Source of the DNA: Deltaproteobacteria bacterium
Lineage (GTDB): Bacteria > Desulfobacterota > WTBG01 > CAIYCZ01 > CAIRTM01
DNA: 58,954 nt
Direction: 5' to 3'
Assembly: GCA_016875025.1 (NCBI GenBank)
Contig: VGSH01000002.1
Coordinates: 1 to 58,954, forward strand
Shown here: piece after piece, positions 15,116-56,797 of the stretch
Layout of the letters: each line of letters begins with the position of its first letter
Numbering within the stretch: the stretch's first letter is position 1
Translations under genes and position numbers: made by a program
Notes under the pieces: model-generated
Told to the model about the DNA's origin: nothing
What the model saw: only the letters and a program-made list of their open reading frames with translations
Databases searched by the model: none

Positions 15116-17770
15116 ATGCAGCGAAACATTCAACATCGCATAATCAGACCTCTGTGGCGCTTCGCGCGCGCGACGAACTTTGCAGCCGTGTTCGGCCACG
15201 CACGGGCTCCGGTAGCGCTTCCAGCGGGGTTTGACTGGAAATTCTACCTTGATTTTTACCCCGACCTGCGCAAAGCGGGCCTGCGGACTGAGCAGGATGC
15301 GGCTGAGCATTACAGGTGGCACGGATTTTTTGAAAAACGTTTCACCTGTGCGCCTGATCATTACCTGATGGTCCGTCATGATGCTATCCGGCGCCGCCAG
15401 CTTCAGAATATTGCAGCTTTTAATGAACAGCACGTTCAAATTATTAAAAATGAGGCTGCTGCCGTTCAAATAGCCGTATCAGTGGTGATCAGCCTCTATA
15501 ATTACGGGCAGTATATTGAAGCCTGTCTGCGCTCTGTTCTGCAAAGCAGCCTGAAGGATATTGAGATCATTATTGTTAATGACGCTTCAACCGACAATTC
15601 GCTTTCGCTCTGCCGCAGACTTCTGGACTGCCCTGTACCAGTAACCATTCTCGACAAGAGCATCAATACCGGGGTGTCGCACTGCCGGAATATGGCAATC
15701 CGTCAGGCCACAGGCGATTATGTTTTTATTCTGGATGCTGACAATGAGATATATTCCGACTGTTTTGCGGAGCATCTGGCCTGCATGCGCGCTGATGCTC
15801 AGCTCGTAGCCTGCTACGGCGTGATAGATCTTTTTGATGAGTCCGGGCGTTTCTGCGGCCAGGTTTCCGATGCTCCATTTGATGTCGGTAAACTGCTGCA
15901 GGGCAATTATATCGATGCCATGGCCATGTTCGAGCGCCGGGCACTGATCGACATCGGCATGTACGATGAAAAACTGCTTGAGCAGGGCATCGGCTATGAA
16001 GATTACGAACTCTGGCTCAGGATAGGGCGGCAGGGGAAAAAAGTCGGCTGCATCGAGCGCCCGCTGAGCAGGTATCTTCAAAAAAATGAATCGATGGTAG
16101 CCGTGTCCAACCGCTTTTATCGCAGACCTCTGGTGGCATGGATACGGCAGAAATATTCGCCGCATAGTGTGACGGGCCGCAGGACTGCCGTGCTGGTCGT
16201 CGGGATGCACCGCAGCGGCACGTCGGCCCTGGCAGGGGTGCTCAGCCTTATGGGTGCGTATCCGGGCTTGGACCTGATCGGCCCGGAACGCTCAAATGTA
16301 AAGGGACATTTCGAATCCAGAAAAATTGTCGCGCTCAACGACGCATTGCTTGATGTCCTGGGCGCACGTGCACCTGAATCCGGCGATTTGCCCGCGGACT
16401 GGCTGGGGTGCGAAGAAACGCGCCGGGCCGCGGAGAGTTTAAAAAAAATTATTTCTGATGAGTACAGCGGACGGGAAATTTTTATGATCAAGGACCCGCG
16501 GCTATGCCTGCTGCTGCCCCTGTATCACGACATTCTGAACGAGCTGGAAATCGATGTCAGGGTTGTCGCGATACGGCGGGACGTGCGCGAGGTTGTCGAG
16601 TCCCTGTATGAACGCGATCGGTTGCCGCATGAACGCGGCCGTGCATATTATGAAAAACACATCAGAGCGCTTGACCATAATCTGGCAGGGCTGCAATTCA
16701 TTTCGGTCACCTTTGACCAGCTGATCGAAACTCCCGGTGCGGTTATGGAAACAATCCGGGCGTTCATTCCGTGTCTCTCGGCAGGTGACATCCCGGGCCT
16801 TGATTGCCAGATCGGGCAGTTTATCGAACCGGGTCTTCGCCACCACAGCATCCGCACGGCACAGAGCCCTGCATCAGTTTTTACCATTGTTGCGCGTACA
16901 TGGGATCACCTGTGCGGCAGCGCAGGGGGGCCGGATTTCCTGATTATCGGCGCTCAGCGCGCAGGAACAACCTCGCTGTACCATTACCTGTGCGCGCACC
17001 CGCAGATACATGCGCCTGCCCGCAAGGAACTGCACTGGTTTCATGCCGGTCCGCAGGACGAGGACGGCTATCACAACGGTCACAGGTCCCGGCAGTGGTA
17101 TGAACGCCAGCTTGCCGGTAACGGCAGAATCGCTTTTGACCGTCTGCTGCATCGCAGAAAGCTGACGTTTGAAGCAACCCCGGAGTATCTGTATCATCCG
17201 CTGGTGCCGCAGAAAGTGTTCCAGCTCTATCCGGCTGTCAAAATCATCGTTGTGCTGCGTGATCCGCTTGAGCGGGCCGTTTCCCAGTATTTTCATGAGA
17301 AAAACGCGGGTTTCATAGCGCCGGATCTTTCAATTGAGAAGTATTTCGACCGCGATCGAGAGATTGCTTCTGTGGAGGAGCAGAAGCTGTTGCATGACGA
17401 CGGCTATTTCAGCTTCGAGTTTGAGCACTGCTGTCCGATTGCCAGAAGTAATTACGGCCGTCAGCTCGCCCGATGGCTGCGCTGCTTTTCACGTGACCGG
17501 ATGCTTATTGTGCGAAGCGAGGATCTGTTTCATGATCCGGTTCCGGTTGTGGATGCCGTGTGCGGTTTTCTGGGGATAGCACGCTGTGCCGGCATTCTTC
17601 AAAAAAAGAATGTGGATTGTAACAGCAGCAACCGGCCACGGCTCAGCGACGGGCAGCGTGCACGGCTTCTATCATTTTTCCCCTATGATCTGAGCGTTGA
17701 TAAATTCTGCAGCCCAACGAGTGGTGCACTACAGTCTGTGCCGTCCGGCGAACCCGGCGGTTGCTCTTGA
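15116..17770 (+). CDS. Triple-domain protein: family-2 glycosyltransferase + two sulfotransferase domains
   Basis: GT2: VSVVISLYNYGQYIEACLRSVL...IIIVNDASTDNS...ILDADNE. Sulfotransferase A: VLVVGMHRSGTSAL. Sulfotransferase B: FLIIGAQRAGTTSLYHYL plus VVLRDPLERAVSQY (5'-PSB and 3'-PB PAPS-binding motifs). Confidence 0.85.
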   Translation: MQRNIQHRIIRPLWRFARATNFAAVFGHARAPVALPAGFDWKFYLDFYPDLRKAGLRTEQDAAEHYRWHGFFEKRFTCAPDHYLMVRHDAIRRRQLQNIAAFNEQHVQIIKNEAAAVQIAVSVVISLYNYGQYIEACLRSVLQSSLKDIEIIIVNDASTDNSLSLCRRLLDCPVPVTILDKSINTGVSHCRNMAIRQATGDYVFILDADNEIYSDCFAEHLACMRADAQLVACYGVIDLFDESGRFCGQVSDAPFDVGKLLQGNYIDAMAMFERRALIDIGMYDEKLLEQGIGYEDYELWLRIGRQGKKVGCIERPLSRYLQKNESMVAVSNRFYRRPLVAWIRQKYSPHSVTGRRTAVLVVGMHRSGTSALAGVLSLMGAYPGLDLIGPERSNVKGHFESRKIVALNDALLDVLGARAPESGDLPADWLGCEETRRAAESLKKIISDEYSGREIFMIKDPRLCLLLPLYHDILNELEIDVRVVAIRRDVREVVESLYERDRLPHERGRAYYEKHIRALDHNLAGLQFISVTFDQLIETPGAVMETIRAFIPCLSAGDIPGLDCQIGQFIEPGLRHHSIRTAQSPASVFTIVARTWDHLCGSAGGPDFLIIGAQRAGTTSLYHYLCAHPQIHAPARKELHWFHAGPQDEDGYHNGHRSRQWYERQLAGNGRIAFDRLLHRRKLTFEATPEYLYHPLVPQKVFQLYPAVKIIVVLRDPLERAVSQYFHEKNAGFIAPDLSIEKYFDRDREIASVEEQKLLHDDGYFSFEFEHCCPIARSNYGRQLARWLRCFSRDRMLIVRSEDLFHDPVPVVDAVCGFLGIARCAGILQKKNVDCNSSNRPRLSDGQRARLLSFFPYDLSVDKFCSPTSGALQSVPSGEPGGCS

Positions 17771-38006: not shown

Positions 38007-39593
38007 ATGAAAGACTATCGACGTGCGGCCGTGTGGTGTGCAGCCATGTGTGCAGCTGTCATGTGGTGTGTCACCGGGGCTGATGCGCTGGTGCTGCGCG
38101 GTCAGTTTCCGGTTCATAACGGCATGTACTGGAATTTCAGTGATAACGCAACACAGCAGCAGATGACCTGGGCGGTACTTGGAGGGTTCGCGCGTTCCGA
38201 CGCCGGAGAGCTTATCGTGTTTGCGCGCCAGGGGAATGGCTTCCTTGCGCTCAGGCAGGAGTGGGACGGTCTGTACATGTGCGGTGAATACCGCATCGAC
38301 GGCTTCAGCATACCTGAAACGCCGGTCATGTTCATGCCGTTTGATATTGATTTCGACAAACCCGTCCAGAGTTCCACCCGCATGAGGACGTATACCGCCG
38401 GTGAGAATCCACGGCAGACCGCTGAATACGACTACAGTGTAACGGTTGAACTGCAGGCGCTTGAGGATATGTTCATCGAGGGGCGGGAAATACGCAATTG
38501 CGCCGTGCTGGTGAGGAAAGTCAGGTCGCAGGGCGCTGAGAGCGTCGAAACCTTCTGGCTGGCCCCGACCGTCGGTCCGGTCAGGATGCGCTTTGAGAGT
38601 CCGGGTGTGGTGAATACGTATAACATGCAGACCTACAGCACTGAACGGGGCGGGCCGGCGAGGGAGTTTTCCCTGAAACGATATTTCCCGCTTGTTCCGG
38701 GCAGGGCATACGATTACCGCGATCAGGCCGGCACTACAGTTACGGCAGCATTCGGCGGGCGCCTGGAACGGCTTGGCCGCCTGACGGTTCCCTATACCGA
38801 CCCTGACGGCGATGTGTATTATTTGAGGTGGGATGACAGCGGGTTGACGCTTCCGCTCAAGTACCGTGCTTCGATGGGCTTCGGTTTTGCCAGCCTGCCC
38901 CCGGACGGACCGCCGGTGCTGCTGCCGGCACGCTCAGCACCCGGCCGCCTGAACCATTCACTGACGTACCTGCGCACGGTACAGTGGCCTTCGCTGCAGC
39001 CCATGTTTGATTTTTATCCGGAAAACGAGATGGCGTCGGTCATCGTCGGCGTTGAAGACGTCAGTGTGCCGGCCGGAACCTACCGGGACTGTATAAAGCT
39101 CTGCGTCAGTTCGATAAACCGCTCGTACGAGATGCAGCGCGAAAAAATCCGTATCGGATTTATATGGCTTGCGCCCGGCGTCGGCCAAGTGAAAAGCGAG
39201 GGTGTGAGCCTTGCCAACAACTATCTGAAGGAAACGCCGGATTACATTTTCCAGAATGCGCGACTCGAGCTTGCTGCCATCAGAAAAGGCGAACCCACAA
39301 AAGCGGGGAAAACTGCCCCGCAAGCCGAACGGCCGGCGTCCGGCAACCGTGTCCCGGAGGAGAAACTCGTCTGGCAGGACAACAGCCAGGCCATGTTTGA
39401 CGCTACGGTTGATGCGGCGCCGTTTTTTGTGCGTCGTATGGTCAGGAGAAATCTGCTGGATGCGGTTATTGAGCGCGCCGGCGCCGGCGGTGAGGTACCC
39501 GAGGAGGCGGTCATAGCGGCGGTGCAGGCGACTACGCCGGAAAAGATGCGCGCTCAAATCGTGCGTGAGCTTGAACAGATGAAAACACGCTGA
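38007..39593 (+). CDS. Secreted protein with two beta-rich repeats and a C-terminal PCP-reductase-like (PF08369-type) domain
   Basis: AAGAGG SD. Signal-like AAVWCAAMCAAVMWCVTGADA. Two repeats ending ...RNCAVLVRK...FWLAPTVGPVRMRFE and ...VPAGTYRDCIKLCV...IWLAPGVGQVKSE. C-terminus AAPFFVRRMVRRNLLDAVIERAG..VPEEAV resembles the ChlB/BchB C-terminal PCP_red domain. Confidence 0.65.
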   Translation: MKDYRRAAVWCAAMCAAVMWCVTGADALVLRGQFPVHNGMYWNFSDNATQQQMTWAVLGGFARSDAGELIVFARQGNGFLALRQEWDGLYMCGEYRIDGFSIPETPVMFMPFDIDFDKPVQSSTRMRTYTAGENPRQTAEYDYSVTVELQALEDMFIEGREIRNCAVLVRKVRSQGAESVETFWLAPTVGPVRMRFESPGVVNTYNMQTYSTERGGPAREFSLKRYFPLVPGRAYDYRDQAGTTVTAAFGGRLERLGRLTVPYTDPDGDVYYLRWDDSGLTLPLKYRASMGFGFASLPPDGPPVLLPARSAPGRLNHSLTYLRTVQWPSLQPMFDFYPENEMASVIVGVEDVSVPAGTYRDCIKLCVSSINRSYEMQREKIRIGFIWLAPGVGQVKSEGVSLANNYLKETPDYIFQNARLELAAIRKGEPTKAGKTAPQAERPASGNRVPEEKLVWQDNSQAMFDATVDAAPFFVRRMVRRNLLDAVIERAGAGGEVPEEAVIAAVQATTPEKMRAQIVRELEQMKTR

Positions 39594-49006: not shown

Positions 49007-49189
49007 TCAGGCCTTGGGGTTCGAACCAGATGAGCGCAGCAGCACTTCGTCAATCTTTTTTTTATCAAAGCGCCAGGAATTGCCGACGCGAAATCCCGGA
49101 ATAGTTCCCTGCTTCGCATGTTTATACACCGTCAAAACAGACATTTTCAGGTACTGGGCAACTTCCTTGGGGGTCATGATTTCAGGCAT
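49007..49189 (-). CDS. Excisionase/MerR-type helix-turn-helix DNA-binding protein
   Basis: MTPKEVAQYLKMSVLTVYKHAKQGTIPGFRVGNSWRF is the typical excisionase-family HTH_17 pattern. Confidence 0.75.
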   Translation of the reverse strand: MPEIMTPKEVAQYLKMSVLTVYKHAKQGTIPGFRVGNSWRFDKKKIDEVLLRSSGSNPKA

Positions 49190-49972: not shown

Positions 49973-50047
49973 GCCGGGTATGTGAGCAGCCGGATGCCTG
50001 CGGCAGTCCGGTAAAAACCGGTATAGACACAGGGAGGTTCAGTATCC

Positions 50048-51031
50048 ATGGCGCGTGAGAACAAAAAAACGGATTTTATACTTGACGAAGAGAAGTGTAT
50101 CGGATGCGGCATCTGCATTGATGCCTGCCCGCTTAAAATTCTCGAGATTGTGAACGGGCTCTGCATCATGACCGATGCGACCAAATGCCTGGAGTGCGGA
50201 ACCTGTATCCGTGAATGTCCGCAGGATGCCATTACAATACCGGGGGTAAAGGTTTCATCGAAAACCGGCTCTGATGCTCCGCGAGCAGCCTCCGCGCCCG
50301 TCGTTAAGGGCGATGAAAAGTTCACCCCCATTCTGCAGCATCTTACCGATATGCTGATGCAGGAGCTCGCTTCGGAGCAGATTTTTGAGCATGCCGGGAC
50401 GGACATCCGCAGTCTGGAGGAGTTTGATGTTGAGGGCCACAGTTGTTTTTACCGTGCCTACAAAGCACCCAAGCTTGAGAAAATCGGCTTGTCGAGGATG
50501 AATTTTTACGGCACAATGGTGGCTGACGTGGTGGTTGTAACGCCGGCTGCCAACTATGATATTCCCTATTATATCATGGACTGGGATGAGTCCGATGAGC
50601 ACATTTTCTTCATCTGCGACCTCATGTCGGGCGATGACGTCGGCCGCAACCAGCAGATGCTGCAGAAATATTATTATGAGCCGCTTGAGGACCTCTATCA
50701 GGAATTCGCAGCCATGCCGGGCATGCGGCCGAGCGTGTTTCACTGGGTGCGGGCGCTGCATTCGCCCTATATTATCACCGGCACGGTTGAGAAAAACCCT
50801 GAAAGCGTGGCCGGTATTTTCAAGTGCGCGGTTGACTATTTCAACGCCTGGCTGAATATTTACAAAGCAGCGCAGCCCCGCGACCCGCAGTCGCCGGAAA
50901 TGCGGCTTATCAATGAGCGCCGCCGTCAGATCCGGGCGGTCTACAAGGAAAATGATCCGGGAGTCGGCTCGCTCAACAAGTTCCTGGGAGACAAGATGGC
51001 CGACATAGCCCTGTCGATTATCGAGCCATAA
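50048..51031 (+). CDS. Fusion protein: 2x[4Fe-4S] ferredoxin domain + FDBR (bilin-reductase fold)-like domain
   Basis: CIGCGICIDACP and CLECGTCIRECP. After a Ser/Ala/Pro linker: FYRAYKAPKLEKIGLSRMNFYGTMVADVVVVTPAANYDIPYYIMDWDE...FFICDLMS, HSPYIITG, and C-terminal YKENDPGVGSLNKFLGDKMADIALSII. These align by eye with PcyA blocks. Confidence 0.65.
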   Translation: MARENKKTDFILDEEKCIGCGICIDACPLKILEIVNGLCIMTDATKCLECGTCIRECPQDAITIPGVKVSSKTGSDAPRAASAPVVKGDEKFTPILQHLTDMLMQELASEQIFEHAGTDIRSLEEFDVEGHSCFYRAYKAPKLEKIGLSRMNFYGTMVADVVVVTPAANYDIPYYIMDWDESDEHIFFICDLMSGDDVGRNQQMLQKYYYEPLEDLYQEFAAMPGMRPSVFHWVRALHSPYIITGTVEKNPESVAGIFKCAVDYFNAWLNIYKAAQPRDPQSPEMRLINERRRQIRAVYKENDPGVGSLNKFLGDKMADIALSIIEP

Positions 51032-51103
51032 TGTCCGGACGTGTGAGCGCAGTTGCATGATTCGTGATTGAGTCGGCTGAAAAACGTACGGAAGGGTTAT
51101 GCT

Positions 51104-53035
51104 ATGCATACCACTGCACAGGCCTCGGGCTGGGCCGGCACTATCGCGCATGTTGATCTAACGCAGCGGTCGGTACAAACTATCGAAACCGCTCGCTACA
51201 GCCGCGACTATATCGGCGGGCTGGGCATGAGCCTGCGCCTGTACCGGGATATGGCCCGGCCTGATGCGGATGCGTTTCATCCCGACAGCCCGCTGCTGTT
51301 CATGACCGGTCCGCTGGCAGCCACGCCGGCGCCGAGTGCCTCGCGCCTTGTGGTGTGCGGCAAGTCGCCCTGCGTATTTCCTGAGCACTTCGTTTCGGCA
51401 AATCTGGGCGGTTTCATTGCCGCTGAGCTCAAAAAGGCCGGCTATGACGGCCTGGTCGTGACCGGCCGGGCCGACAGCCCGGTATACCTGCATATTCAGG
51501 ACGGCACCATCGAGATCCGATGCGCCCGGCACCTGTGGGGGCAGGGCAACTATGCCACCCGGGAGCGCCTGCTGCGCGATCACGGCAGCCGCTCCCGCAT
51601 GCTCTCGATCGGCCCGGCCGGAGAAAACCGGACCCGCATCGGCATTGTGTTCTCTGATGCCGGCAGCTGCGCCTCAATGGGGTTCGGTTCGGTCATGGGT
51701 TCCAAACATCTCAAGGCCGTGGTCGTGCAGGGCAGCGGCAGCATCGGGGTTGCCGATCCTGATGCTATCAAACATATCCGGCAGACCTATCGTGCCATGA
51801 CCGGCCAGGGGTATTTTCACCTGTTCAACAAGCCGATCGTGCTGCCCGGGGCAACGGTGCAGAAGAAGGTGCACTGCCACGGCTGCCCGCAGGGCTGCTG
51901 GAGGTCACTGCACCGCAGCCCGGAAGGCCGCGAGGATGTGCGCAAATGCCAGATCGGCAATTTCTACATGCTGTGGGACAAACAGCTGCACGGCACGTTT
52001 ACCGAGGCAAGCTTTGAAGCTCCCACCATGGCCAATGATTACGGCGTGTGTGCCATGGACATGGTGTTCATCCTGCTGTGGCTTGACCGCTGCCGCTCGC
52101 AGGGCCTTGTAACGCAGGCTTCCACAGGCCTTGCATTTGATCAGATGGGCAGCCGGGAGTTTCTCGATGATGTGCTCAAAAAAACTTCGCTGCGACAGGG
52201 CTTTGGCGATCAGCTGGCTGAAGGCCTGCTGCGGCTCTCCCGCTCAGTTGGAGGAGAGGCTCAGACCATTGCCGAAAACATGCTGACTGAGAGCGGTCGG
52301 GCGATCGCCTACGGGCCGAAAGTATTCGCCATGGCAGCGCCCATTTACGCGACCGAGCCGCGGCCGTGCATCACTGAGCTGCATGAAATCTGCGAACCAC
52401 TGACCAAGTGGGCTCGCTGGCATCTGTCCGGCGGCACCGAGGGCTATATGTCGACCGATGTGCTGCGGCGTATTGCGCAAGCTTTCTGGGGCAGTTGCGA
52501 GGCCGTGGATTTCAGCACGCATGCGGGCAAGGCCCTGGCAGCCGTCAAGGTGCAAAACCGCCAGTTTATAAAGGAGTCGCTCAACCTGTGCGATTTCGCC
52601 TGGCCGGTGTATGATGCCGCTAATACGCCCGATCATGTCGGTGATCCCGATCTGGAGCGCACGCTGTTCACGGCCGTGACCGGCATTGATGCGACGCGCG
52701 ATGATTTTGACCGCATCGCCGGGCGGCTCGTGACCCTGTACCGCTGTATTCTGCTGGGAGAAGGCCGCAGCGACGACACCCTGCCCGAATTCATGTTCAT
52801 CGAGCGGCCCGAGATGATCGCTGATGTGTTCGGCATGTATAATCCGGAGCTGTATCTTCCCGGCAGCGGTGCGGAGATCATCTCGCGCAAGGGCAGGGCG
52901 CTCGACCGGGAGCAGTTTGCGGCCATGATGGATGAGTACTACGAGCTGCGTGGATGGGATGTGCAGACCGGTCTGCCGAAGCCTGAGACCCTGCAGCGGC
53001 TCGGCTTGAGCGCGCAGCCGCAGAACTGCTCCTGA
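51104..53035 (+). CDS. Aldehyde:ferredoxin oxidoreductase (AOR) family tungsto/molybdopterin enzyme
   Basis: GWAGTIAHVDLT, YIGGLGMS, GPAGENRTRI, GSVMGSKHLKAVVV (AOR N-terminal domain). CHGCPQGC cluster motif. Start set at ATG 51104 behind GGAAGGG. Confidence 0.85.
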   Translation: MHTTAQASGWAGTIAHVDLTQRSVQTIETARYSRDYIGGLGMSLRLYRDMARPDADAFHPDSPLLFMTGPLAATPAPSASRLVVCGKSPCVFPEHFVSANLGGFIAAELKKAGYDGLVVTGRADSPVYLHIQDGTIEIRCARHLWGQGNYATRERLLRDHGSRSRMLSIGPAGENRTRIGIVFSDAGSCASMGFGSVMGSKHLKAVVVQGSGSIGVADPDAIKHIRQTYRAMTGQGYFHLFNKPIVLPGATVQKKVHCHGCPQGCWRSLHRSPEGREDVRKCQIGNFYMLWDKQLHGTFTEASFEAPTMANDYGVCAMDMVFILLWLDRCRSQGLVTQASTGLAFDQMGSREFLDDVLKKTSLRQGFGDQLAEGLLRLSRSVGGEAQTIAENMLTESGRAIAYGPKVFAMAAPIYATEPRPCITELHEICEPLTKWARWHLSGGTEGYMSTDVLRRIAQAFWGSCEAVDFSTHAGKALAAVKVQNRQFIKESLNLCDFAWPVYDAANTPDHVGDPDLERTLFTAVTGIDATRDDFDRIAGRLVTLYRCILLGEGRSDDTLPEFMFIERPEMIADVFGMYNPELYLPGSGAEIISRKGRALDREQFAAMMDEYYELRGWDVQTGLPKPETLQRLGLSAQPQNCS

Positions 53036-53055: not shown

Positions 53056-53180
53056 GCCTGCCGCACGTTTTTTTCCTTGAAAACACCCCCGCTAAGCTAT
53101 TTAATACTCTCACAGCAGGTTAGTGGCCGGCTTTCGGACGCCCTGCCGGTCGTATGCTTTTGCGCAGGAAGGTGTATGTG

Positions 53181-54485
53181 ATGCAGCAGACACACACGCT
53201 CATACTCGGGGCCGGTCTTGCAGGACTGTCGGCGGCGTATCATCTGGACGGGCATGAGTATCTGGTGATTGAAAAGAACAGCTCTCTCGGCGGCCTGTGC
53301 ACAAGCGAGGAAAAGCAGGGTTTTGTGTTTGATCAGACCGGGCACTGGCTGCACATGCGCGATGAGAACATGCAGCGGCTTGCTGCCGCGCTGCCGGGTC
53401 TGGACCGGGTCACAATTGAGCGCCGGGCCCATGTTTTTTCGCACAACACCATTACCTGCTACCCGTTTCAGTCGCACACCTTCGGCCTGCCCCCGCAGGT
53501 CATCAGAGAATGCGTGCTGGGCTTTATCCGCGCGCGATATGAAAGCGACCGCTCGCGGCCGCCGGCAAACTTTTACGAGTGGTGCATGGCCAACCTCGGC
53601 GAGGGCATTTCCCGCCATTTCATGATTCCCTACAATTCAAAGCTCTATACCGTGCATCCGCGGGAGTTCGCCTGCCACTGGTGCGATACCTATATACCGG
53701 TGCCGACCATCGAACAGGTCGTGGACGGCGCGCTTACCGATCCTGAGCATGACAGCGCAGGCTATAATGCGACCTTCAGCTACCCGCGCAGCGGCGGCAT
53801 CGGAGCGCTGCCGGAGGCTCTTTTCAGCCTGTGCCAGCCGGAGCGTTTTTTGTTTAATGTGCATCCTGTTGCCATCGATATGCAGCGCAGGATTGCGCGC
53901 CTTGCGAGCGGCGATGAGATCGCTTTCAAGACGCTGATCAGTACCATTCCCCTGCGGGATTTTCTGCAGCTTGTGCGCTGTGGCGGGTCCGACCGGCTGC
54001 ATGAGGCTGCCGGCCGCATGAAAATAGCATCGGTCAGCTATTATAATGCCGCTTTTAAAACAGCGCCCGCGCATCCGGGTCACTGGTTCTACATTCCCGA
54101 AGAGCGCTTCATGCCCTGCAGGGTCGGTTTCTACAGCAATGTGCATGAGGGCATGGTCCCTCCGGGGTGCTCGTCGGCCTATATAGAATACACGCATCAG
54201 GGCCCCCTTGCCGATGAGGGCGCCTTCAGGAGCGCAAGCGTGGAGCTGCTGCTGCAGATGGGCCTTTTTGCAAGCGCCGATGATATATTGTTCATGGACT
54301 ACCGCCTGATTGAAAACGGTTACGTCATCTTCCACCGGGAGTATCCCGAGGATATGCAGATGATCGAGCGTTGGTGCCGGGAAAGCGGTGTTGTGCTTGC
54401 CGGCCGCTACGGCCGCTGGGTTTATTCTGCCATGGAGGATGCCGTGCTGGACGGCATGCGCGCGGCTGAAACGGTGCGGGGCTGA
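53181..54485 (+). CDS. FAD-dependent oxidoreductase (amine-oxidase / UDP-galactopyranose-mutase / protoporphyrinogen-oxidase-like fold)
   Basis: Dinucleotide-binding start LILGAGLAGLSAAYHL...VIEKNSSLGGL and C-terminal LAGRYGRWVYSAMEDAV. Subfamily cannot be decided by eye. Confidence 0.7.
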   Translation: MQQTHTLILGAGLAGLSAAYHLDGHEYLVIEKNSSLGGLCTSEEKQGFVFDQTGHWLHMRDENMQRLAAALPGLDRVTIERRAHVFSHNTITCYPFQSHTFGLPPQVIRECVLGFIRARYESDRSRPPANFYEWCMANLGEGISRHFMIPYNSKLYTVHPREFACHWCDTYIPVPTIEQVVDGALTDPEHDSAGYNATFSYPRSGGIGALPEALFSLCQPERFLFNVHPVAIDMQRRIARLASGDEIAFKTLISTIPLRDFLQLVRCGGSDRLHEAAGRMKIASVSYYNAAFKTAPAHPGHWFYIPEERFMPCRVGFYSNVHEGMVPPGCSSAYIEYTHQGPLADEGAFRSASVELLLQMGLFASADDILFMDYRLIENGYVIFHREYPEDMQMIERWCRESGVVLAGRYGRWVYSAMEDAVLDGMRAAETVRG

Positions 54486-54544
54486 GAGCGCATGCCAGCG
54501 CTGCTTTGCTCAGGAACCGGGGTTGTTTTTTACAGGATTGACGT

Positions 54545-56797
54545 ATGCGTCGTTCGTATCTTGTGCTGACAGCGCTGGTAGCGCTTTATTGCCTGTCGCG
54601 GCTGGCTGTTGTTTATTACGGCTATTCGCACATATCCCATCCGTATTTTGACGAGCCCGTATCAGGCACCCTGACCTATGACCTGCTGCAGGGAGGCCTG
54701 CGCGCTCCGCTCATGGCCTATCAGTATGAGCAGCGCTCGGGCGACATGATGATCGAGGCCCTGCTGATGTATCCGCTGGCCGCCCTTTTCGGTCACTCCA
54801 TGTTCACGATCAAGCTGTTTGCCCTGCTGTGCTCGCTTGCGTGCATGCTTGGCTGGGTGTACCTCATCAACCGCTATTTCGGCATGACGGCCGCGCTCCT
54901 GTTTGCCGCCCTGTTTGCCCTGCCTCCGCCCATGTTCGTCCGCCTGGGCCTGGTCGGAACGTTCAGCTCGCATCATATGATCAATCAGATTCTGATCGTG
55001 CAGCTGATATGCCTGTTTCGCATGCTTGAAAAAAATGACAGGCCTGTCCCGCTCCTGCTGTGGCTGGTCTTCGGCCTGTGCGCGGGTTTGGGAACGTATG
55101 CGTTTTACAGCTACATCATATTCAACGCGTTCTGCGCGCTGTTTGTGCTGTGCTGCATGCCGCGGATGATTTCTCTGCGGGGGCTCTGCGCTCTGTGCGC
55201 CGGAGGCCTTATCGGCTTTGCGCCCTGGCTGTGGCGTACGCTCTTTTACTCAAGCGGCGGAGGGAGCTTTCTTGCAGGGCTCTTTAAAAACATTTCTCTG
55301 TCGCCCTGGTCGTTTGTTCAGACTTTTTTCCATACGGTTCCGTACACACTCGGATACGGCTATCCCGGACGCGATATCGGCTTGGCCGGGGTCATCATTG
55401 CGCTTCTGTTGCTTGTCGCGATTGCCGGGAGCATACGCGCAGCGGTGCGTTCTCCCGGGGCGGTTAATGCCCTTTCATTGCATGGGCGATTTGAAGACAC
55501 AGTGCAGCCGCTGCGATTGTGCCTGTTTGTGACCCTGTTCCCTGTTTTTTTTCTTGTATGCCTGATGCTTTCGCCCATGCAGCTCAATCCGCTTGAGTAC
55601 TGGCCCACGATCGGCATATTCGCCAGTTTCGCGCCTGCCGATGTCATTCGCTGCCGCTGGGTAACGATCCTGTTTCCGTTTTATTTCGCTGTCGCGGCCC
55701 TTTGCCTGCGCTTGCTCTTCGGGCACGGGCGCTGGGCCGTGCGGGTCTGCACCGTGGCAGTCTGCCTTGCCGTCCTGACCCTCAATGGTGTGCATCTGAC
55801 GGGCATGCTGTCCCGCGAGGACGCCGGGAAAATTTTTCTGTACCAGGGCTATAATTTCGATCAGTATGCCAGCCGCCTGCTCCTGCCTTCAAGGTCATCC
55901 TCCCGTCTGACTACCGCTGAACGGATCGTCGCCGGCTATCCTGTTGAAAACAGCGAGGAGGCATGGCGGGCGCTCGGCACCAGGCTTTTTTTCGAGGCAG
56001 TCGCGCGCTCTGATGCCGAAGAGTACATCACGGGCTACGTTGAAGCGGCCCCCGGGCATCGGCGCGGCCCCCTTGGCTACGGCCTGCTCCGGGTTCTGCA
56101 CGGCATGCCGGAAAAGGCGGATGCGCCGTGGGTACGCGCGCTCGCCGAACGGTATCCGGACATTTTTTACAAAAACTGGGGCTGCCAGTTCCTCGGATAC
56201 ACCTACTATGGATTCATGCTGAATCGCGTCCGTCTGCTCGAATCACTAGCGGCTTCCGAACGCTTTTTTTTCAAGTCCTTTCTGGAAGAGTTACGGACCG
56301 GCCGTCGTGACGAATCCAACCGGCAGTTCGTCGACCGTGTGAGTGACCATGACGATCAAACGGTCGAGCGCCTTTTTATGCAGGATATTGCAGCTGTTCC
56401 TGAACGCTACCGGGGCCGTGCCGTGCAGGGCATCGGCCGGCTTGTGGGTGCGGAGATGCTTTTTGATACGCTGCATGTGCCGAACTACCCCCTCGACAGC
56501 AGCGTGGGTGAAAAATTTGATGATGATTTGAAGGCGTATTTTTATCGTGGGGTCGGCAACGGTTTCGCCGAAACGCTGTGCCGCTACTGGCGCAGGCTCA
56601 TGCCGCCCGACAGCCTCAGCTGCGACAGGTATGCACGCGGGCTTGAGATTGAATGGCAGCGCTGCTTAAGCCTGATGCAGCAGATGCCCGCTGAACGCTC
56701 CGACCTGATATGGGAAGGTTTCCTTGAGGAGCTCGAAGAGCGCGATCTGAACGAATCCATCCGGGCGTTTATCACCCGCAGACTTTCGATGCGGTAG
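54545..56797 (+). CDS. GT-C fold (ArnT/PMT family-39-like) membrane glycosyltransferase with large C-terminal soluble domain
   Basis: About 13 TM helices in the first 440 aa or so. Acidic first-loop motif YFDEP. C-terminal soluble domain of about 300 aa, helical. Confidence 0.6.
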   Translation: MRRSYLVLTALVALYCLSRLAVVYYGYSHISHPYFDEPVSGTLTYDLLQGGLRAPLMAYQYEQRSGDMMIEALLMYPLAALFGHSMFTIKLFALLCSLACMLGWVYLINRYFGMTAALLFAALFALPPPMFVRLGLVGTFSSHHMINQILIVQLICLFRMLEKNDRPVPLLLWLVFGLCAGLGTYAFYSYIIFNAFCALFVLCCMPRMISLRGLCALCAGGLIGFAPWLWRTLFYSSGGGSFLAGLFKNISLSPWSFVQTFFHTVPYTLGYGYPGRDIGLAGVIIALLLLVAIAGSIRAAVRSPGAVNALSLHGRFEDTVQPLRLCLFVTLFPVFFLVCLMLSPMQLNPLEYWPTIGIFASFAPADVIRCRWVTILFPFYFAVAALCLRLLFGHGRWAVRVCTVAVCLAVLTLNGVHLTGMLSREDAGKIFLYQGYNFDQYASRLLLPSRSSSRLTTAERIVAGYPVENSEEAWRALGTRLFFEAVARSDAEEYITGYVEAAPGHRRGPLGYGLLRVLHGMPEKADAPWVRALAERYPDIFYKNWGCQFLGYTYYGFMLNRVRLLESLAASERFFFKSFLEELRTGRRDESNRQFVDRVSDHDDQTVERLFMQDIAAVPERYRGRAVQGIGRLVGAEMLFDTLHVPNYPLDSSVGEKFDDDLKAYFYRGVGNGFAETLCRYWRRLMPPDSLSCDRYARGLEIEWQRCLSLMQQMPAERSDLIWEGFLEELEERDLNESIRAFITRRLSMR

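Follow-up and report, generated by a model that had tools for sequence, protein, structure and literature searches.

What would a bacterium that appears to be both anaerobic and non-photosynthetic do with a bilin reductase joined to its own ferredoxin? Ferredoxin-dependent bilin reductases (FDBRs) make the chromophores of phytochromes and phycobilisomes, and the question is raised by a stretch of 58,954 nucleotides (referred to here as the window) from contig VGSH01000002.1 of Deltaproteobacteria bacterium, assembly GCA_016875025.1. The gene concerned, an open reading frame (ORF) at 50048-51031 on the forward strand, encodes a protein of 327 residues with a ferredoxin at its N-terminus and an FDBR-like domain, termed type A, at its C-terminus, and is followed by a gene of the aldehyde:ferredoxin oxidoreductase (AOR) family. 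Type A proteins form an apparently undescribed clade that is confined to uncultured anaerobes. With a probability that may be put at about 0.5, they are ferredoxin-tethered C=C reductases of the FDBR/RCCR superfamily that act in anaerobic catabolism.

The fusion gene is organised as follows.

50032..50037, forward strand: Shine-Dalgarno-like GGGAGG, 10 nt 5' of the ATG of the fusion gene, read directly from the sequence
50048..50260, forward strand: 2x[4Fe-4S] ferredoxin domain, residues 1-71 (Pfam Fer4, conserved cysteines, pLDDT 85-95)
50096-50131, forward strand: CxxCxxCxxxCP motif C17-x2-C20-x2-C23-x3-C27-P, residues 17-28
50186-50221, forward strand: CxxCxxCxxxCP motif C47-x2-C50-x2-C53-x3-C57-P, residues 47-58
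50261..50314, forward strand: flexible linker rich in Ser, Ala, Pro and Lys, residues 72-89, predicted to be disordered (pLDDT <50 at 73-89)
50315..51031, forward strand: FDBR-fold type A reductase domain, residues 90-327 plus the stop codon (Pfam, Foldseek and profile matches)

Pfam Fer4 matches two stretches of the N-terminus with 49.6 bits (cutoff 21.1), many related Fer4 families match as well, and all eight motif cysteines are conserved in a 31-sequence family alignment. On the strength of both motifs and the Fer4 match this domain is a bacterial-type 2x[4Fe-4S] ferredoxin that is predicted to bind its clusters, which bears out what a preliminary description of the locus had proposed from the motifs. 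The linker that follows varies in both sequence and length across the family. No Moco/Tuco or cobalamin riboswitch was found 5' of the locus at E values up to 1.

The C-terminal part of about 240 residues had been likened by eye to the PcyA/HY2 family, a resemblance that is upheld both by profile and by predicted structure. Residues 134-319 match Pfam Fe_bilin_red (PF05996) from position 38 to position 219 of the 228-position profile, and the score of 44.4 bits exceeds the cutoff of 31. An AlphaFold2 model of the protein, built from the 31-sequence alignment, has a mean pLDDT of 87.6 and falls below 50 only in the linker (73-89) and the first three residues. When the model is compared with the PDB by Foldseek, the top 44 matches are all FDBR/RCCR-fold proteins at probability 1.00, and they include HY2 (E 1.3e-10), PebB, PcyA, RCCR, PebA, PebS and a subunit of the Ycf2-FtsHi motor. 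The target-normalised TM is 0.62-0.76 for HY2, PebB, PcyA, RCCR and PebA, 0.63-0.70 for PebS and about 0.4 for the 406-residue Ycf2-FtsHi subunit, and sequence identity to the structurally matched proteins is 12-20%. The Fe_bilin_red match is far above chance and, judged by sequence profile and model together, the domain belongs to the FDBR superfamily and is predicted to adopt its alpha/beta/alpha sandwich. The match to the Ycf2/Orf2971-FtsHi protein-import motor subunit of Chlamydomonas (8xqw_H / 8xks_P, E 1.8e-8) is a reminder that this fold also serves uses other than bilin reduction.

Three acidic residues lie at positions where catalytic residues would be expected.

50525-50527, forward strand: Asp160, candidate proton donor, at least 90% conserved, aligned with HY2 chain Asp99
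50579-50581, forward strand: Asp178 ('IMDWD'), candidate proton donor, invariant, aligned with Asp101 of the G. theta PebB (GtPebB) chain in the central sheet
50954-50956, forward strand: Asp303 ('ENDPG'), candidate proton donor, invariant, aligned with GtPebB chain Asp221 and tomato HY2 chain Asp239

Profile and phmmer alignments both make the Asp of the 'KDPA/KDPG' motif of PebB and HY2 the counterpart of Asp303. Allowing for chain offsets of 2 and 24, the aligned residues are presumably the catalytic pairs Asp99/Asp219 of GtPEBB and Asp123/Asp263 of tomato HY2. The preliminary description had aligned the Asp of 'IMDWD' with Asp105 of PcyA and regarded it as kept, which agrees with the pairing of Asp178 with the central-sheet Asp of GtPebB. 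It had also placed a Val at the position of PcyA His88; this is correct for an ungapped hand alignment to PcyA, but the residue next to that Val is Asp160, which pairs with HY2 Asp123 in the phmmer alignment, and so sits at an HY2-type donor position. About 40 further positions are also invariant across homologs that are 48-92% identical.

Despite this kinship the window protein is not one of the named enzymes. The type-A family profile gives E values of 4e-11 with HY2, 3e-6 with PebB, 2e-3 with RCCR and 1.3 with PcyA. Among the NCBIfam FDBR equivalogs the best match is PebB (PRK13250) with 34.2 bits, where 327 are required, and the PcyA model does not match at all. Since the equivalog cutoffs are not reached, the protein is, as judged from its sequence, none of PcyA, PebA and PebB. 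Membership of the RCCR family was considered and rejected, as Pfam RCC_reductase (PF06405) scores 17.6 bits, under its cutoff of 24.9.

The distribution of the fusion was followed with the FDBR-like domain alone as the query, using clusters at 90% identity and E values up to 1e-3. This matched 81 clusters, about 70 of which are proteins of 318-339 residues with Fer4 followed by Fe_bilin_red and 48-92% identity. Precomputed PF05996 matches are carried by about 75 homologs, although the fusion proteins are entered in the databases as '4Fe-4S binding protein', 'ferredoxin' or 'dihydropyrimidine dehydrogenase PreA subunit', and their FDBR domain has escaped notice. A scan of one genome per species gave 25 loci, all in metagenome-assembled genomes (MAGs) of uncultured Thermodesulfobacteriota or 'delta proteobacterium' except for two, one labelled Proteobacteria and the other a Spirochaetota single-cell genome, and a metagenome scan added 50 further loci. 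A domain-only profile run against 1.84 billion representative proteins returned 129 matches with E values of 1e-3 or less and 11 with E values of 1e-30 or less, and the type-A family is therefore small and tight.

For neighbourhood counts, the 49 type-A loci with at least 6 kb of flank were used. In all 49 the ferredoxin is either fused to the reductase or encoded directly upstream of it, which departs from the usual FDBR trait of electron supply by a free ferredoxin in trans. Seven loci (L019, L021-L025 and L032) constitute a split subclade, where the ferredoxin is a separate gene that ends about 21 nt before the reductase gene, with a stop codon, ribosome-binding site and start codon at the position of the linker. 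In L032, read directly, the ferredoxin ORF stops at TAA and is followed by the ribosome-binding-site-like GGAAAGGAGAG and then by ATG. This alternation of fused and split forms, a Rosetta-stone pattern, points to the ferredoxin as a redox partner dedicated to the reductase. To our knowledge, this is the first natural ferredoxin-FDBR fusion. An origin of the fusion in an assembly or frameshift artefact, which the preliminary description had named as a way in which its reading could fail, can be dismissed, since about 70 independent clusters share the architecture and the seven split loci have a clean stop. A single locus, L016 (8001-9000), does shift from frame 0 to frame 1 within the linker, probably by a frameshift that is either a sequencing error of a long-read MAG or the mark of a pseudogene.

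The neighbourhoods of type A, analysed by clustering all neighbouring ORFs and annotating them with Pfam, hold partners that are missing beside the fusion gene of the window. Directly downstream of type A in 37 of the 49 loci lies type B, a second and unfused FDBR-like paralog of about 235 residues, which is 21% identical to type A (hhalign probability 98.9%), has an Asn at the central Asp position, as in HY2, and keeps 'NDPG'. An SDR gene is likewise found in 37 loci. FAD_binding_4 and CCG-domain Fe-S proteins occur in about half of the loci, usually together with a predicted membrane protein of 126-140 residues, and TetR or MarR regulators are common. Rarer neighbours are GGR-like flavoproteins, AKR-Fer4, PNPOx-like proteins, FMN reductase, thiolase, O-methyltransferase and uptake-type genes (DUF1302, DUF1329, MMPL and BNR); no unannotated cluster recurs in more than nine loci. 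The clearest operon, L026, comprises DUF1302, DUF1329, TetR, AOR, SDR, the membrane protein, FAD_binding_4, CCG, the ferredoxin-FDBR fusion (A) and FDBR (B). The TetR/MarR, thiolase, AKR-Fer4 and DUF1302/DUF1329/MMPL/BNR genes give these neighbourhoods a catabolic flavour, and the setting is anaerobic, as the hosts are Thermodesulfobacteriota MAGs and the loci carry the O2-sensitive AOR family and HydF. The recurrent neighbours that can be placed by coordinates are these.

L020/L026:9029-9739, with equivalents in 37 loci: type B, FDBR-like paralog
L028:16500-17204 and L088:3967-4665: divergent type B subtype with the motif 'HDPGV...FGR'
L032:4460-5215, L025:1517-2272, L030:694-1449 and L009:6787-7509: 252-residue family resembling coproporphyrinogen III oxidase (CPOX), usually adjoining FMN reductase
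L021:5652-7058 and L025:6361-7806, also in L023, L024, L069, L071, L073 and L076: ferrochelatase-like protein, between thiolase and TetR or the ferredoxin-FDBR gene

The 252-residue family is present in seven loci, and no Pfam model matches it above threshold. By profile, the PDB entry closest to it is human coproporphyrinogen III oxidase, at E 1.6e-3 and near full length; that it might be a third FDBR paralog was set aside, because the hhalign probability is 6%. The CPOX family is O2-dependent, yet its relative is found here in the clusters of anaerobes. The ferrochelatase-like protein, of 469-481 residues and present in eight loci, aligns with Pfam Ferrochelatase over a long stretch but scores 22 bits where 27 are required, and it matches no PDB sequence, so that its identity as a ferrochelatase was rejected and it is kept as a hint. 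The PNPOx-like neighbours were considered as HugZ-type heme degraders or F420-dependent biliverdin reductases, but they match the generic PNPOx family and no conclusion is drawn from them. With the FAD_binding_4 partner it is the FAD domain that aligns, D-lactate dehydrogenase and glycolate oxidase being slightly the best matches, which does not decide between PCMH/VAO and GlcD.

Proteins that would betray an ordinary bilin pathway are not seen. Heme oxygenase, phytochrome, CBCR, globin and V4R are missing from the precomputed Pfam annotations of the annotated type-A loci, and heme oxygenase and bilin-binding proteins are also missing from the recurrent neighbour clusters and the scanned ORFs of the window, although no heme-oxygenase HMM scan dedicated to all loci was made. 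The preliminary description had reported neither heme oxygenase nor phytochrome in the window, and had suggested that the substrate may not be biliverdin; both statements agree with these surveys.

A distant relative shows part of the same arrangement. In L035 (3575-9084) and L036 the unfused FDBR-like protein P0100 stands in a module with a 141-residue protein, FAD_binding_4 and CCG, and its locus also lies beside a UbiD-family decarboxylase and a luciferase-like oxidoreductase. Because the unfused P0100 retains it, the module of FDBR-like protein, flavoprotein and CCG protein is suggested to predate the ferredoxin fusion.

The window belongs to a minimal clade (the window, L001, L002 and L040), in which type A, with or without AOR, is followed by an amine-oxidase-like flavoprotein and a PMT_2-type protein. 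That the preliminary description missed the constant partners is explained by the window lineage having lost them or keeping them elsewhere. The AOR-family gene of the window has the following features.

51090..51096, forward strand: Shine-Dalgarno-like GGAAGGG, 5' of the AOR ATG 51104, read directly from the sequence
51104..53035, forward strand: AOR-family tungsto/molybdopterin enzyme of 643 residues (AFOR_N 206.6 bits, AFOR_C 151.7 bits)
51875-51898, forward strand: [4Fe-4S] motif C258-x2-C261-x3-C265 (CHGCPQGC, residues 258-265) of the AOR protein
51947-51949, forward strand: C282 of the invariant K281-C282-Q283 insertion, which aligns with BamB K321-C322-F323
51965-51967, forward strand: invariant Tyr288, which aligns with P. 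furiosus AOR Glu313

The most likely start is the ATG at 51104, with a TTG at 51068 as an alternative that would give 655 residues. Both Pfam domains and the CxxCxxxC motif make the product, on sequence grounds, a member of the AOR family, and with this start the gene indeed lies 72 nt downstream of the fusion gene on the same strand, as previously described. No terminator-like hairpin is found between 51031 and 51104.

AOR orthologs that are 51-84% identical to that of the window occur within 10 kb of type A in 11 of the 49 loci, and L045 is a twelfth AOR-bearing locus with a paralog that is only 40% identical. There are at least four gene arrangements and a Spirochaetota genome is among the AOR-bearing loci: the gene is directly downstream of A in the window, L001 and L040, follows A and B in L007/L049, L018, L051 and L052, is upstream in the same operon in L020/L026, L025 and L032, and is divergently transcribed in L031. 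The 83%-identical relative L002 has no AOR, however, nor do about three quarters of the loci, and the AOR orthogroup, which comprises over 120 clusters with at least 53% identity, is larger than the ferredoxin-FDBR family. The genomic link between AOR and the fusion is real but facultative, and the possibility raised earlier, that orthologs would never neighbour AOR genes, is contradicted by these loci. Sampling from the AOR side covered three orthologs on long contigs, and FDBR-like or shared cluster genes were present in two of the three loci. L088 has an FDBR-like gene of the type-B lineage 3.3 kb upstream of the AOR ortholog, and in L090, from the same MAG as L012, the AOR ortholog has MarR and two GGR-like flavoproteins as neighbours, and these families turn up repeatedly in ferredoxin-FDBR clusters. 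In L089 (8001-17947) the ortholog (56% identical) adjoins a B12-binding radical-SAM gene and is a few kb from hemB, a cobA-hemD fusion and hemC, a proximity that may be coincidence or a further tetrapyrrole link.

What the AOR-family protein does is harder to read. An ortholog profile scores 264 bits with P. furiosus AOR, 245 with FOR and 213 with BamB, mostly via the N-terminal domain. The NCBIfam AOR equivalog model, for its part, gives the protein of the window 264 bits, far below its cutoff of 868. Its AlphaFold2 model (pLDDT 79.6, pTM 0.87) matches all solved family members at a Foldseek TMq of 0.70-0.75, and structure comparison was discarded as a means of telling AOR from BamB, since all members match equally (0.73-0.74 for BamB against 0.71-0.75 for AOR and FOR). 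The catalytic Glu of aldehyde:ferredoxin oxidoreductases sensu stricto is replaced, as Glu313 aligns with the invariant Tyr288. K281-C282-Q283 lies in a five-residue insertion that is shared with BamB and absent from AOR, and the motif is kept in every FDBR-linked AOR copy and in 114 of 120 orthogroup members; Cys282 aligns there with BamB Cys322, which we take to be a tungsten ligand. The invariant Tyr and the BamB-type Cys together make it doubtful that the protein oxidises an aldehyde and reduces ferredoxin, the role assigned to it in the preliminary description, and it may instead be a second low-potential reductase. It is not closer to BamB than to the AORs, given the bit scores above and equal TM-scores.

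The working of the fusion protein may be envisaged as follows. The clostridial-type 2x[4Fe-4S] domain would take up low-potential electrons and, on its flexible linker, pass them singly to a conjugated substrate that would sit with the beta-sheet on one side and the C-terminal helices on the other, while Asp160, Asp178 and Asp303 would give protons. As a net result a conjugated C=C system would be reduced step by step, in the manner of bilin reductases, in the service of anaerobic catabolism or biotransformation instead of pigment biosynthesis. The type B protein present in most relatives would allow successive reduction, like PebA and PebB. The downstream AOR, a divergent W/Mo-pterin enzyme with a BamB-like Cys, would be an optional but recurrent member of the pathway that probably exchanges electrons, in one direction or the other, with the tethered ferredoxin. 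Every characterised member of the fold known to us acts on tetrapyrroles. The kept catalytic Asp residues, an A/B pair like pebA/pebB and the CPOX-like and ferrochelatase-like neighbours point towards a tetrapyrrole-derived compound, made without O2, as the substrate, a proposal that we hold tentatively and at somewhat less than even odds. Another vinyl- or alkylidene-substituted (hetero)aromatic would be a guess for the alternative.

Several observations weigh against this picture. With only 12-19% identity to any characterised FDBR, retained activity is something that we infer. The tetrapyrrole hints are weak homologies in seven to eight of the 49 loci each, the PNPOx-like and FAD_binding_4 partners match only generic families or the FAD domain, and no ChuW-type radical-SAM gene recurs in the loci, where no anaerobic ring-opening enzyme that might furnish a linear tetrapyrrole was seen. 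The UbiD decarboxylase beside the distant relative points to aromatic side-chain chemistry and not to tetrapyrroles, and the SDR, flavoprotein/CCG, thiolase, W-enzyme, regulator and uptake genes, taken together, resemble anaerobic aromatic side-chain catabolism. Moreover, the clade of the window has no type B, SDR or FAD/CCG genes nearby, so the context of its relatives may not apply to it.

The preliminary description had seen in the two genes a self-contained redox couple, in which AOR oxidises an aldehyde, or reduces an acid, and reduces the fused ferredoxin, which in turn feeds the FDBR-like site. The close, co-directional arrangement of the genes with no terminator between them fits this, 2x[4Fe-4S] ferredoxins are the usual partners of AOR, and in the clade of the window AOR is the sole redox neighbour. 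The recurrence of an AOR neighbourhood in 12 of 49 loci, in several arrangements, stands as support for the chain, but the chain is not the conserved unit, as L002 and about 75% of the loci manage without AOR and the AOR orthogroup outsizes its supposed partner. Together with the loss of Glu313, the BamB-type Cys and the distance from the AOR equivalog, this makes such a chain unlikely. In a second alternative, both proteins would consume low-potential electrons on one pathway: a BamB-like Cys-ligated W enzyme would reduce a (hetero)aromatic ring and the fusion protein the resulting or neighbouring conjugated double bonds, with the ferredoxin as a BamC-like relay. The KCQ motif, conserved across the orthogroup, speaks for such an arrangement, HdrD/BamD-like CCG Fe-S proteins, thiolase and SDR recur in the clusters, and the UbiD decarboxylase of the distant relative would be at home there. 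Yet, by either profile or structure, the AOR-family protein resembles BamB no more closely than it does AOR or FOR, the window holds no BamD-I homologs, CoA ligase or dienoyl-CoA hydratase, and the role of Cys322 as a tungsten ligand is our assumption, and this proposal too seems improbable.

There remain two further explanations of the fusion itself. An ordinary FDBR that makes a phytobilin from biliverdin, fused to its electron donor by chance, would account for the score above the Fe_bilin_red gathering threshold and for the PebB/HY2-type Asp, and pre-PcyA enzymes from heterotrophs are active on biliverdin (PMC10151467, PMC13446030). The missing heme oxygenase, phytochrome and globin annotations make this unlikely, within the scope of the survey given above (which also returned no CBCR, BBAG globin or V4R), and the hosts are anaerobic whereas canonical heme oxygenase requires O2. 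With TetR/MarR regulators and catabolic neighbours around it, and 34 bits against the 327 of the NCBIfam equivalog, such an enzyme would be very surprising here. The FDBR-like domain could otherwise be non-catalytic, a ligand-binding element or scaffold like the Ycf2-FtsHi subunit 8xqw_H that it matches, with the ferredoxin serving another enzyme such as AOR; AOR-family enzymes often have an adjacent dedicated Fe-S subunit, and WOR5 (6x1o_B) and BamC are among the matches. The invariance or near-invariance of three acidic residues at catalytic positions, and of about 40 others, is hard to reconcile with a scaffold, and the FDBR domain keeps its ferredoxin in 49 of 49 loci against only 12 with AOR, which renders this last explanation highly improbable. 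A tethered C=C reductase remains the favoured reading.

If types A and B were active on tetrapyrroles, the consequences would be considerable. The only route of anaerobic tetrapyrrole degradation that we know of is ChuW/ChuY, and the clade may offer an entry to an anaerobic pathway, perhaps one of tetrapyrrole degradation. It can be envisaged, speculatively and with more doubt than confidence, that the two types form an oxygen-independent FDBR branch that remodels or breaks down tetrapyrroles together with the BamB-like W enzyme and the CPOX-like and ferrochelatase-like proteins. Strict anaerobes living in soil and sediment would then process, for example, material derived from heme, chlorophyll or bilins, and this would be the first FDBR-fold chemistry to need no oxygenase upstream. 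Such a branch would run counter to the published conclusion that all FDBR-fold enzymes depend in the end on O2 and that FDBRs emerged later than oxygenic photosynthesis (Rockwell et al., PMC10151467), and would supply the 'archae-FDBR' that is an open question in the field (Frascogna et al. 2026, PMC13446030). As the clade is restricted to anaerobes, wired to a clostridial-type ferredoxin and placed amid O2-sensitive enzymes with no heme oxygenase seen, it provides a concrete and clonable test of the oxygen-linked origin, and it suggests that the FDBR family also has an oxygen-independent role outside pigment synthesis. An active fusion protein would amount to a radical C=C reductase that is self-sufficient, and it might find use in biocatalysis.

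Other genes of the window are listed here for context.

53154-54485, forward strand: FAD amine-oxidase/PRK07208-like gene (Pfam, NCBIfam)
54545-56797, forward strand: PMT_2-type membrane glycosyltransferase-like gene (Pfam, NCBIfam)
49007-49189, reverse strand: 60-residue helix-turn-helix-like ORF (MPEIMTPKEVAQYLKMSVLTVYKHAKQGTIPGFRVGNSWRF...) in the 1.1-kb gap upstream of the fusion gene
15116-17770, forward strand: ORF of 884 residues, family-2 glycosyltransferase fused to a sulfotransferase domain
38007-39593, forward strand: ORF of 528 residues that matches nothing in Pfam at E values up to 1e-5

The pair at 53154..56797 is co-directional, shows synteny in L001, L002 and L040 but in none of the other ferredoxin-FDBR loci, and probably represents a separate envelope function. 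The small ORF at 49007-49189 is 93-97% identical in L001 and L002, which exceeds the conservation of its neighbours, and its product may act as a small regulator or be of the excisionase type.

Comparison with known systems places both proteins of the window at some distance from their relatives. The AOR-family protein shares the AFOR domains, the CxxCxxxC motif and an equally similar fold with P. furiosus AOR and FOR and with BamB, and the aligned Cys in a common insertion with BamB (4z3w) in particular. It differs from the AOR family in the exchange of Glu313 for Tyr and in a highly divergent catalytic C-terminal domain, and from BamB in that the latter is encoded with BamC-I, none of which are near the gene of the window. 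Its gene adjoins the ferredoxin-FDBR fusion, in place of a polyferredoxin subunit.

Within the FDBR superfamily, the pre-PcyA lineages resemble type A as members from outside the oxygenic phototrophs, and Pre-2 and Pre-3 also keep the equivalent of Asp105 and lack His88. They branch with PcyA, and their clusters contain heme oxygenase, an Fe-S protein, a V4R pair and a BBAG globin (Pre-1, Pre-3) or a B12-binding protein and globin (Pre-2) (PMC10151467). These cluster genes are absent from the surveyed type-A loci, where the Fe-S partner is the fused ferredoxin, and membership of Pre-1, Pre-2 or Pre-3 was rejected on this absence and on the weak PcyA profile score, that is, by profile scores and gene context and not by a tree that includes pre-PcyA sequences. 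The two papers on these lineages mention neither a fusion nor Desulfo-taxa (PMC10151467, PMC13446030), and no description of the type-A clade was found, although coverage of the broader literature was limited and an earlier description is possible.

The Candidatus Schekmanbacteria sequences (OGL42193.1), described as lying 'in between FDBRs and ... RCCRs' by Rockwell et al. (PMC10151467), are likewise uncharacterised FDBR-like proteins from uncultured and probably anaerobic bacteria. OGL42193.1 falls in one cluster among the 129 distant type-A relatives and the type-A profile retrieves P0111 (E 8.7e-18), but these proteins group in a cluster of their own at BLAST E below 1e-25, are unfused and of about 233-241 residues, score 86-90 bits with the PebA/PebB models against 34 for the window protein, and stand among radical-SAM and housekeeping genes unrelated to the type-A context. 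Ten sampled representatives of the distant relatives include none at an FDBR equivalog cutoff, and their names are 'hypothetical protein' or absent.

RCCR has the same fold as type A (target-normalised TM 0.62-0.73) and is a ferredoxin-dependent member of the superfamily with a catabolic, not biosynthetic, function, but it is a plant enzyme that acts downstream of an oxygenase. PebB and HY2 (6qwq/6qx6, 6kmd/6kme) are the best sequence-profile matches of type A and share with it the alpha/beta/alpha sandwich (Foldseek E about 1e-10, target-normalised TM 0.68-0.74), the central-sheet Asp and the C-terminal 'DPG' Asp. Identity to them is only 15-19%, and type A is set apart by its non-photosynthetic anaerobic hosts and its catabolic-type neighbours. 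PebB and HY2 rely on a free plant-type [2Fe-2S] ferredoxin, in contrast to the fused or adjacent 2x[4Fe-4S] ferredoxin of type A, while the tandem of type A and type B recalls the pebA-pebB operon.

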